A stretch of DNA of 64,000 nucleotides, taken from Felis catus. Taxonomy: Eukaryota. The position numbers and the translations under genes are program-made. How positions within the stretch are numbered: position 1 is the stretch's first letter; each line of letters opens with the position of its first letter. The stretch spans positions 43,090,001-43,154,000 of the forward strand of contig NC_058382.1 of the NCBI RefSeq assembly GCF_018350175.1, read 5' to 3'. Shown in pieces: positions 31,801-34,800 of this stretch. The notes beneath the pieces were generated by a model. The model searched no databases. It was not told the DNA's origin and was given only the letters and a program-made list of their open reading frames with translations.

Positions 31801-34800
31801 TGATTCTTGATGCATCCCCCCCCCCCCCCCAGGAAGTGAACGAACTGTGTCAGTCAGTGCAGGAGCATGTGGAGCTACTGGGCTGTGGGGCTGGACCCCA
31901 GGGTGAAGCTGCTGTGCACCAGGCTGAGGATGCCATCCAAAATGCCAACTTCTCTCTCAGTGTGAGTACTCCCCTCCCCACCACTGCAAAAAGACCCTCC
32001 CCCACTTAATCAGGTGTCAACTAGCAACTCCTCCTCCTCCTTGGCCTCCAGATTCTCCCAATTCTGTATGAGGCTGGAAGCTCCCCAAGTCATCAGTGGC
32101 AGCTGCGGCAAAAGCTAGAGGGCCTCCTGGGACAGGTGGGCGAGGTCTGCCGTAAAGATATTCAAGTAAGATGGTATCCTAGCCCCAACCCCATCTCCAC
32201 CTCCATAATAGGCTTGACCCCTATCCCATAGGTTTGACTGTGATATTCCTTGAATCACTGTTCTGTGAGGGTTGGAGCTTTAGGCCACACCCTCCATGTT
32301 CTGATCTTTACCCAGGATTTCACTCAGGCTACATTGGACACAACAAGGAGCCTCTGCCCACAGATGCTACAGGGACCCAGGTGGAGGGAGCAGCTAGAGG
32401 GGGTTCTGGTGGGCTCAAGGGGCCTCCCAGAACTGCTCCCAGAGCACCTGCTGCAAGATGCCTTCACTAGGCTCCGGTAAGCTGGATGGGACTGGGCTAA
32501 ACTGGACTAGACAGGACTGGGCATAGATAGCACACTAATCTTTGCTCTCTCTTGCTCTCAGGGATATGCGGTTGTCAGTCACGGGGACCTTGGCAGAGAG
32601 CATTGTGGCTCAGGCCTTGGAGGGGCTGAATGCAGCCCGTGATCGGCTGGTGAGGGAGAATTGTGCACGCAGGCATGTGCATGCATGCACAGGCACACAT
32701 ACACACACAGTGACCTGGCCACTGCCTTGCAGGGGTTCTTTAATGTCTTCTGGGGTCATATAGCCCAGGGTTATTTCAGGGTTTCCTTAGCACTGATGGG
32801 ACTATGGCTGAGGCCCTACCTGCCCATCTTTAGGGTGCCTTATTGCAGGTGGAGAGTCTGGCTCAGCAGGCAACAGTGACAATGCCTCCTGCCATACCAG
32901 CACTGGATGGAGGTGAGCCCAGCCCCCTTGGGCCTGGGGAATTGGAAGGTCTTTTCTTCTCTGAGGAGGTGAGGGAAAAGCAGAAGGATGAAGAGGAACA
33001 GAAGGTAGGTGGTCCCAGAAGTTTGGAAGGCAGGGAGGCAGCTCCCCTGGTTCCCAGGCTGAGTTTCTGCCCTCCCCACCCAGCATGACAGTCCTCCACA
33101 GAAATGGCCTGACTCCAGCCAATGTTTTCACCTGGTCCTCTCCACTCACAGTAAGTCGGTCTGGGGGAAAGGGAGTTAACCAGGTTGAGCTGAAGGTCCT
33201 CCATTAGATCTGGGGACCTAGACACATGGTCACATTCATTTAGTCTTGTCCTAGGAACTACCTGACCCTTGACTGAGCCAGGCCAGGTTCCCCATGCAGA
33301 CTTGTAGGTTGGGGTCTACTGTGGTCAGCATGGAGCAGGACCTGAGCAGACCAGGATCTACTCTCCATTCGTCTCCCCCGCCCCTTTCCCTACCCCCAGG
33401 ATGCGCATGCTTGGCGGCAGCGCAGAGCCGCGCCGCTCGGGGCCGCGCTCAGCACCGCGGACAGCGGCGACGGGGGGAGGGGCGGGCGTGGGGGGGGTGG
33501 GGGTGGCGTAGTCGGGCCCCTCCCCGCGCCCTGGGCGGGTCCCCCGCCGCCCCAGCGCCGCTGCTGCCACCACCACCTCCCCAGGCTTGCTCCTCGGTAC
33601 TCCTCTGGTGCTCTCCCTTTAGGTGCTGCTGAGGAACCGGAGCCCGAGCTGGCGGCTCCGGGGGAAGATGCAGAGCCGCAGGCGGGGCCTTCTGCCCGTG
33701 GCTCTCCGAGCCCTGCCACCCCGGGTCCCCAGGCCGGCCCACTGCCTTGCATGGACCTGCCACCCTCTGGGGAGCCCCTACGCCATCCGACCCGGGCCCG
33801 GCCGCGGCCGCGGCGCCAGTACCACCACCGTCCTCCACCGGGGGGCCCCCAGGTGAGTGCCCTTCCCCCATTCCAGAGCTCGTGGAACTAGGGGGTCACG
33901 GGTGCCTCATTTGTTTCTCAGGAGAGAAGCAGCTAGGGAGGTGGGTTGTCGGGACTCGAGAGTACTTGGTCGTGCTGCCGAATCTTGGCTTATTCCTGGC
34001 CACCCCTTCCCCAGGCCATTCCCATGCAGGGTCATGAGCGTGTGGATTTAATTTGGGGTACATCTCAGTTTAGAACCGCATCTTAGGTTGGCCCTTTGCA
34101 AGAATGGATGTGCGAGAGAGGGTGTCCATCTTATCCTCCCTCTCCCAGGGTTACTGAAAGATCCTGGGCCCCCTGGCTGCGGGGACAATCCTGCATCTAC
34201 TGCACATCCAGTAGTTGTTTATGTGGGGAGATGTTCTGTGTGGGCTGGGTACTGGTGGGGACAGTGGACACAGGGCAGAAGGCAGGCAGGAGTTGGCTTG
34301 AGGCCCCCCAGAGGGTCTGACGCAGCAGCAGGAGCCGCTGAGCTGCCAGCAGGCCGGGTGGGGTGGGGGTGGAAGGTACTGCAGGGAACTGTTTGGAGCA
34401 GAGAGGGTAGCAAATGGGAACGTGTGACCCAGGAGCCTGTAGGTTTTAGCCTGCTGGTGACAGGATGGTTCCGGGTGTTGATACTCCATGGGACAAGAAC
34501 AGGTGTGGGCTGAGTGTGTGTGTCCAGGGCCAGCTTCTGATTAGGGGATATGTGAAACCATCTCTGCCCACCAGTTGGACAGCAGGAATGTTTGTCAGTA
34601 GCCCCCTAAGGTCACTGCAGCTCTCAGGTACAGAAGTTGCCCAGGCTAGGCTGCTTATCAAGGGGTGGAGAGAATATATGGTTGTGCTCAGTCCTTACCC
34701 TATGGTGTCCCCCAGGTGCTCCCAGCCCTGCCGCAGGAAGGGAATGGACTCAGTGCCCGCGTGGACGAAGGCGTGGAGGAATTCTTCTCCAAAAGGCTGA

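Follow-up and report, generated by a model that had tools for sequence, protein, structure and literature searches.

The DNA analysed here (the window) is a stretch of 64,000 nucleotides of Felis catus (NC_058382.1, positions 43,090,001 to 43,154,000, forward strand) that carries CARMIL2, also called RLTPR, a gene for a scaffold protein of lymphocytes whose tail holds motifs that act on actin capping protein. An earlier note on this sequence had proposed that intron 29 of the gene contains an internal promoter, silenced by REST, a repressor of neuronal genes, from which a short neuronal capping-protein regulator could be made. We report that the REST site of this intron is conserved in mammals, that the predicted start of the short form is kept across bony vertebrates, and that a teleost paralog appears to encode the short form and nothing else. 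Papers are cited by accession, and what is said of them refers to the parts of each that were available. The features, in window coordinates, are as follows.

25710-37415, + strand: coding span of CARMIL2 (RLTPR), rebuilt as a spliced model of 39 exons and 1402 residues with one stop
33151-33622, + strand: intron 29, with GT-AG ends, phase 1
33360-33852, no strand: small CpG island of 493 nt, covering exon 30 and the 3' half of intron 29 (76% G+C, 49 CpG, observed/expected 0.69), candidate internal promoter and leader
33402-33413, no strand: NRF1-like motif (10/12 match), overlapping the ATGs at 33401 and 33407
33448-33468, + strand: repressor element 1 (RE1, also NRSE), the REST-binding site, 18/21 to the consensus
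33472-33506, + strand: G-run cluster that includes a GC box; the window has 36 G4-type patterns, this one among them, and it is not diagnostic
33623-33852, + strand: exon 30, its 5' part the would-be leader of a short transcript
33649-33651, + strand: in-frame CTG (Leu940), possible alternative start, G at -3 and +4, giving 463 residues
33668-33670, + strand: out-of-frame ATG, A at -3, opening an 89-codon frame when spliced that overlaps Met974
33751-33753, + strand: Met974, predicted start of the short form, 429 residues to the stop; also where gene models of bats and fish begin
33778-33810, + strand: capping-protein interaction (CPI) motif, starting at Leu983
34758-34796, + strand: CSI motif in exon 31, a complete match to the consensus of PMC5491179
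34957-35001, + strand: basic-hydrophobic membrane-binding stretch in exon 32, assigned from its composition and the description in PMC5491179
37449-37454, + strand: polyadenylation-like hexamer, common to the long and short forms

The rebuilt protein agrees in every letter with P0027, a database model labelled Felis catus, and Pfam recognises in it the domains Carm_PH, LRR and CARMIL_C. The CPI motif bound to capping protein is a pair with a solved structure, and the motif of the window was aligned, via P0135, to the CARMIL1 chains 3lk3_T and 2kz7_C. When set against the pattern LxHxTxxRPK(x)6P it has the core LxHxTxxRP, with Arg in place of the Lys and the last Pro shifted, as in all CARMIL2 proteins examined. 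A protein begun at Met974 would keep the CPI, CSI, membrane-binding and proline-rich parts and be without the PH domain, the LRR and the dimerisation region; having neither PH nor LRR, it would count as a derivative of the CARMIL family and not as a full member. The CPI and CSI together bind the stalk of capping protein, lower capping and release V-1, fragments of CARMIL comprising the capping-protein-binding region (CBR) regulate capping protein, and the membrane-binding domain (MBD) alone suffices for membrane targeting and brings the C-terminal half of CARMIL to the membrane (PMC5491179). CD28 signalling requires the PH domain, the LRR and the proline-rich domain (PRD), while the CPI is dispensable for it (PMC5491179). 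The short form had been described as free of the immune scaffold domains, which is right for PH, LRR and dimerisation region and not for the proline-rich domain, also needed for CD28 signalling and here retained.

That intron 29 turns sharply CpG-rich is confirmed: the 209 nt from 33151 to 33359 hold 1 CpG (observed/expected 0.07), and the 263 nt from 33360 to 33622 hold 28 (0.75; 76% G+C). Introns 24-28 of the gene have only 0-1 CpG each. A CpG island at an internal exon is insufficient as proof of a promoter, because CARMIL2 has another and larger internal island over exons 14-23 (28500-30600), in which there is no strong RE1. The NRF1-like motif, the GC boxes and the G-run reported around the RE1 are all present; they are weak, and we dropped them as support because such sites are common in the window (12 like the NRF1 motif, 10 like the 8-letter GC box and 36 like the G-run). 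Between 33360 and 33400 there is also a pyrimidine tract followed by CAG, ending at 33399 and resembling other CARMIL2 acceptors, from which a frame is open from 33400 into exon 30; it is in phase with exon 28 and might replace exon 29 in Felis catus. P0050, a dingo model, includes the 3' part of intron 29 in that same frame. The frame through the intron varies between the open reading frames (ORFs) of other mammals, and a conserved coding extension of exon 30 upstream to 33400 was therefore rejected.

The RE1 match was scored with the 21-nt consensus of two half sites. It is the sole strong RE1 of the window, the runner-up scoring 15/21. The earlier claim for it stands, and it lies above chance in both nulls: no match of this quality arose in 100 shuffles of the window, and none of 3000 simulated island copies reached 17/21. 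We take the mouse gene D130029J02Rik (NM_001033320) to be Rltpr. A mouse site recorded as intronic in it, mus17354:5, is identical to the window RE1 at 20 of 21 letters (compared by eye) and lies 270 nt from the exon on its left and 151 nt from that on its right, the corresponding distances in the window being 297 and 175 nt; the two sites very likely occupy the same CARMIL2 intron. The mouse site has a position weight matrix (PWM) score of 0.97 (PMC2573930 supplements). Chromatin immunoprecipitation of REST is significant there on arrays (ChIP-chip) in E14, NS5 and NIH3T3 cells and gives clusters of 22 and 12 tags by paired-end ditags (ChIP-PET; PMC2573930), so that binding of REST in what is very likely the orthologous mouse intron, one of the checks that had been suggested, is borne out by published data. 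In three human lines RLTPR/CARMIL2 RNA rises 2.6- to 8.2-fold after REST knockdown, by gene-level array values (PMC2883591), and RLTPR belongs to a 24-gene signature of REST loss (PMC2883591, Table S1). Moreover, four unspliced ORFs from mammalian contigs (P0052, P0066, P0092 and P0119) start at the equivalent of the ATG at 33407, inside the NRF1-like motif, and cross the RE1 in two different frames, the DNA motifs being kept and the frame not. Conservation of the site across mammals is thereby upheld, by the mouse site with its matching intron geometry and by the four ORFs that read through it; a metagenome scan for DNA orthologous to the locus gave 598 pattern matches, none of them confirmed. 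The site is bound by REST in mouse, the RNA of the human gene rises on REST loss, and the RE1 is probably functional in other mammals.

The RE1 is 7.7 kb from the main CARMIL2 ATG, and REST-regulated genes that are strongly derepressed mostly have theirs near a start, in many cases no more than about 1 kb away (PMC2573930). Downstream, at 40355-41142, the head-to-head starts of two genes, one on each strand, share a CpG island, with a PDZ match and, at 40489, the sole perfect NRF1 12-mer of the window. We take these genes to be ACD (- strand) and PARD6A (+ strand). Their island, about 7 kb from the RE1, puts their starts about as far from it as the main start of CARMIL2, and the majority of REST-bound genes are not derepressed (PMC2573930), which speaks for a site that controls ACD or PARD6A or is bound to no effect. 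Against control of a neighbour, the knockdown tables hold RLTPR and neither ACD nor PARD6A in the part available (PMC2883591), and we regard the two possibilities, taken together, as highly improbable. Near the corresponding exon of CARMIL1 and CARMIL3 in the same genome there is no RE1-like site of at least 16/21. A 19/21 RE1-like site is found about 40 kb past the last matched CARMIL1 exon (G000:C13:4157037-4157057, in L026), where it may serve the neighbouring gene, presumably SCGN, a REST target.

Met974 is, as had been noted, the only in-frame ATG of exon 30, with G at +4 and just ahead of the CPI, which follows nine residues later. The Met stands in each of the 120 proteins of one search (116 scored, 4 checked separately). 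Three further searches, with mammals, birds, squamates, sturgeon, bowfin and teleosts represented, contribute 152 CPI-bearing proteins, of which 151 have it; the single exception is a fragment that begins two residues later. The proposed multi-species check thus comes out in favour of the Met throughout the bony vertebrates. At this position both CARMIL1 and CARMIL3 of that genome carry a Ser. In a sample of 49 hand-picked placental models, conservation is 0.81 for exon 28, 0.76 for exon 29 and 0.945 for residues 932-973 of exon 30, the latter being 42 low-complexity residues before Met974. Evidence of this kind indicates that Met974 is under selection as a start codon. We make no claim that exon 30 is also coding in the +1 frame: the exon is rich in Pro, Ala and Gly codons, and an open +1 frame is therefore to be expected. 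The CPI exon of CARMIL1 (L003; G000:C13:4217596-4217814, - strand) itself opens with a Met in strong context, and the intron before it is CpG-rich and contains an NRF1-like half site; that setting is not distinctive, because the whole region is CpG-rich, and a parallel short form of CARMIL1 is possible.

Fish offer a gene in which the short form seems to stand alone. A search with a 439-residue salmon model gave 320 matches, and among the best 120 of these (770-2195 residues) 100, which an eye count assigns to about 90 named euteleost species, represent one paralog, which databases label mucin-like, FLO11-like or uncharacterised. Those 100 proteins have CARMIL_C at most, with PH or LRR in none of them, and Pfam finds neither domain in the short models P0135, P0202 and P0319. 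They retain the CPI, the CSI, the basic stretch and downstream blocks specific to CARMIL2; the blocks of exons 32-33 match CARMIL2 only, an assignment that relies on low-complexity-filtered tblastn, unfiltered summed scores being swamped by low-complexity matches. Seventy-one of the 100 start at the Met itself, 20 have fewer than 150 extra residues and 9 start after the CPI; the remaining 20 of the best 120 matches are long CARMIL2 proteins, all of which keep the Met. Eight clusters of the short paralog contain 73 members, every one of at most 943 residues, X1 isoforms included. In a tree from a quick search of 33 hand-picked rows, with CARMIL1 and CARMIL3 outgroups that are long, sparsely filled and poorly placed, the short fish genes form one clade (100 by the SH-like approximate likelihood ratio test, SH-aLRT), sister to the teleost full-length carmil2 genes (98; joint clade 95), and the joined clades are sister to the single gene of bowfin, Amia (93). 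The paralog fits a copy from the teleost duplication that has retained only an internal transcript, and the gene itself probably lacks the upstream PH and LRR exons. Killifish UniProt entries of the paralog presumably come from brain transcriptomes. In the 20 extended fish models, the 23 codons before the Met are 92% conserved, and farther up the frame is broken in some lineages. The leader is thus conserved despite a broken frame, as expected of a non-coding leader, and this reading may explain why early exon 30 is so oddly conserved in mammals.

Two further observations concern the distribution of fish genes. In three gobies (P0207, P0219, P0228, P0462 and P0463) the only annotated form of the other carmil2 paralog has 672-729 residues and begins at the same Met; these species may be without a full-length CARMIL2, or their models may mirror the dominant transcript. 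Proteins of otophysans (zebrafish, carp, catfish) are absent from the short-only paralog (P0277-P0377) among the best 120 matches. Possibly the short paralog was lost in this group, which would explain the count of three genes in zebrafish work.

In mammals, a database search limited to proteins of fewer than 771 residues gave 112 matches, and cluster members were searched as well. Five bat models begin exactly at the equivalent of Met974: one of Rousettus (427 residues), three of Myotis (439, 422 and 412) and one of Rhinolophus (401). They apparently derive from the six-bat annotation, which used long-read cDNA (PMC8075899), and as evidence for a mammalian short form they are suggestive only. 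We set aside Logan ORFs whose first exon is exon 31 as fragments of contigs. A MetaClust protein, P0051, fuses CTCF zinc fingers to CARMIL2 from exon 30 on, as a read-through or a gene-calling artefact between adjacent genes. As for the context of translation, Met974 has T at -3 and G at +4 and the main CARMIL2 start C at -3 and G at +4; the context of Met974 is no worse than that of the main start. Leu940 has a stronger context and is kept in 47 of 48 models, its 34-codon spacing to the Met being fixed in 48 of 48, so that a short isoform might begin at the CTG at 33649; more broadly, the isoform may be real and made in several tissues, or otherwise not mainly neuronal or not gated by the RE1. 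The absence of the gene from the dominant-negative REST list of mouse stem cells, in the file available (PMC2573930), would agree with this. Opposed to it are a top-scoring site, bound in three mouse cell types and 150-300 nt from the proposed start (PMC2573930), and, as regards the CTG, the 71 fish and five bat models that begin at the Met, although gene callers ignore CTG. We judge this alternative to be quite unlikely.

Several observations, beyond the weak rooting of the fish tree, count against an internal, REST-gated start in CARMIL2. PMC2883591 lists for RLTPR an intronic 16-mer other than the RE1 of the window, and in PMC2573930 the expression file for dominant-negative REST does not name the mouse gene. 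The knockdown check thus gives a divided answer, the human RNA rising, at gene level, and the mouse gene being unnamed in that file. The supplements of PMC11071216, PMC6344529 and PMC8851790, searched in part, gave no matches. No RefSeq mammalian isoform starting at Met974 was found among the 112 shorter matches or the cluster members, and none for the cat. The 5'-truncated models P0241, P0265, P0142 and P0143 begin at other Mets, and the short models of yak (P0137) and pigeon (P0154) were discounted, long counterparts existing and the models possibly being split ones. PMC9754768, in the part available, describes three human CARMIL2 isoforms in leukocytes, all of them long. Met974 is the first Met to follow any 5' truncation behind Met868, and Met1183 and Met1218 are likewise invariant within placentals. 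Finally, the out-of-frame ATGs at 33401 and 33407, which open a 36-codon ORF, and that at 33668, whose frame and Met recur in an alternative-frame model of wood mouse (P0254), would reduce the use of Met974 if transcription begins above them. Neither these ATGs nor the CTG at 33649 figure in the earlier note.

Some of these points agree with a different account, in which the RE1 is a true silencer of the full-length gene, acting from 7.7 kb in cells that are neither neuronal nor lymphoid, the brain makes full-length CARMIL2, the mammalian short models are 5'-truncated cDNAs and the fish gene is an independent truncation after duplication. Intronic RE1 sites that act on distant promoters exist, the REST data are all of gene level or of binding only, truncated models begin at other Mets as well, and the 112 shorter matches hold no RefSeq mammalian short isoform. 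This account leaves unexplained, however, why a Met stands nine residues before the CPI in CARMIL2 of all lineages when CARMIL1 and CARMIL3 have Ser, why conservation steps up at exon 30, where there is a separate CpG island, and why the other teleost paralog has short-only models at the same Met (goby X1-X3, 722-729 residues). Moreover, Jurkat T cells show REST bound to DNA, yet expression of the long gene in lymphocytes is strong. We consider a distant silencer unlikely, while giving it some weight.

We return to the internal promoter. Given a start Met that bony vertebrates have conserved, a teleost paralog annotated only as the short form, and the binding of and repression by REST, a short CARMIL2 that opens with the CPI is very likely a real, selected unit. 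That the CpG island with its conserved REST site is a second, REST-repressed promoter, with a transcript start near or in exon 30 and translation from Met974 into a 429-residue, probably neuronal regulator of capping protein, is in our judgement probable; within it we infer the transcription start, the action of REST on that start, the neuronal bias and the existence of the short protein in mammals. The reading of the earlier note is thus borne out in part, by REST binding in mouse, REST-dependent repression in human, the conserved Met and the short fish gene, and stays an inference for the internal start and the restriction to neurons. Where REST is low, the promoter in the intron 29 island would fire and the short transcript would be translated from Met974. 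The product, disordered and probably monomeric, would attach to the plasma membrane through its basic stretch, and its CPI and CSI would recruit capping protein, free it from V-1 and loosen its capping, so that actin in neurites or spines would be shaped. In lymphocytes the main promoter, 7.7 kb upstream, would be used instead and give the long scaffold.

This kind of mechanism, an internal promoter giving a C-terminal isoform, is already known, as is control of RLTPR by REST at the level of the gene. Isoforms made from internal promoters include FRNK (FAK/PTK2), telokin (MYLK), EFA6As (PSD), Dp71 (DMD) and the products of intragenic CpG-island promoters of SHANK3. As in CARMIL2, the promoter lies inside a large multidomain gene and yields only a C-terminal interaction module, often in restricted tissues; those cases differ in having mapped starts and detected proteins, whereas the CARMIL2 start is a predicted one, the switch proposed for it is a REST site, and in fish one paralog is short-only. 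The site resembles those of REST/NRSF targets with an intronic RE1, in that it is canonical at 21 nt, REST-bound and accompanied by a rise of RNA on REST loss; work on such targets has treated RLTPR as one gene-level target, and we found no second start beside the site in that literature. Teleost mitfa and mitfb, in which alternative transcripts were fixed as separate genes after genome duplication, are a parallel in that one duplicate keeps the product of one promoter. In contrast to them, the carmil2 product that was kept has lost two thirds of the ancestral protein, and databases name it mucin-like or FLO11-like. Like CapZIP, a small CPI protein, neuronal CARMIL3 and twinfilin-1 (PMC9557104), the short form would be a largely disordered regulator of capping protein; it differs in carrying the CARMIL-only CSI and MBD. 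It would share CPI, CSI, MBD and PRD with CARMIL1-3, whose full layout is PH, LRR, HD, CPI, CSI, MBD and PRD (PMC5491179), and lack PH, LRR and dimerisation; that review counts three vertebrate genes and lists, in the part available, neither a short isoform nor a tail-only fish gene. Nor did we find a description of a short or internally started CARMIL2, or of such a fish gene, in the literature at the level of titles and abstracts, with subscription journals thinly covered.

CARMIL2 is commonly detected in brain, although in one panel of mouse tissues it was confined to thymus and spleen (PMC5491179), and a hippocampal phosphoproteome (bioRxiv) lists it among synaptic proteins. Capping protein in dendritic spines needs CPI partners, and loss of CARMIL3 accounts for only part of that need (PMC9557104). 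We lean, if only slightly, towards a wider view: that for more than 400 million years bony vertebrates have had a second protein inside CARMIL2, beginning with the CPI, made from an internal promoter, gated by REST and biased to neurons; that euteleosts made it a stand-alone fourth CARMIL gene, mislabelled as mucin-like; and that immune-deficient patients whose CARMIL2 mutations truncate the long protein early would still have it. If this is true, it would account for a lymphocyte scaffold gene being a REST target and present in brain, and for the conservation of a CPI that CD28 signalling does not need, and it would name a further CPI protein that could bring capping protein to spines. Most PH and LRR alleles of patients and mice would leave the neuronal product intact, and the gene-level RLTPR signal in brain and in REST-less tumours may reflect a protein other than that of T cells. 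A single fish gene that encodes the short form only would then be a ready genetic model for it.

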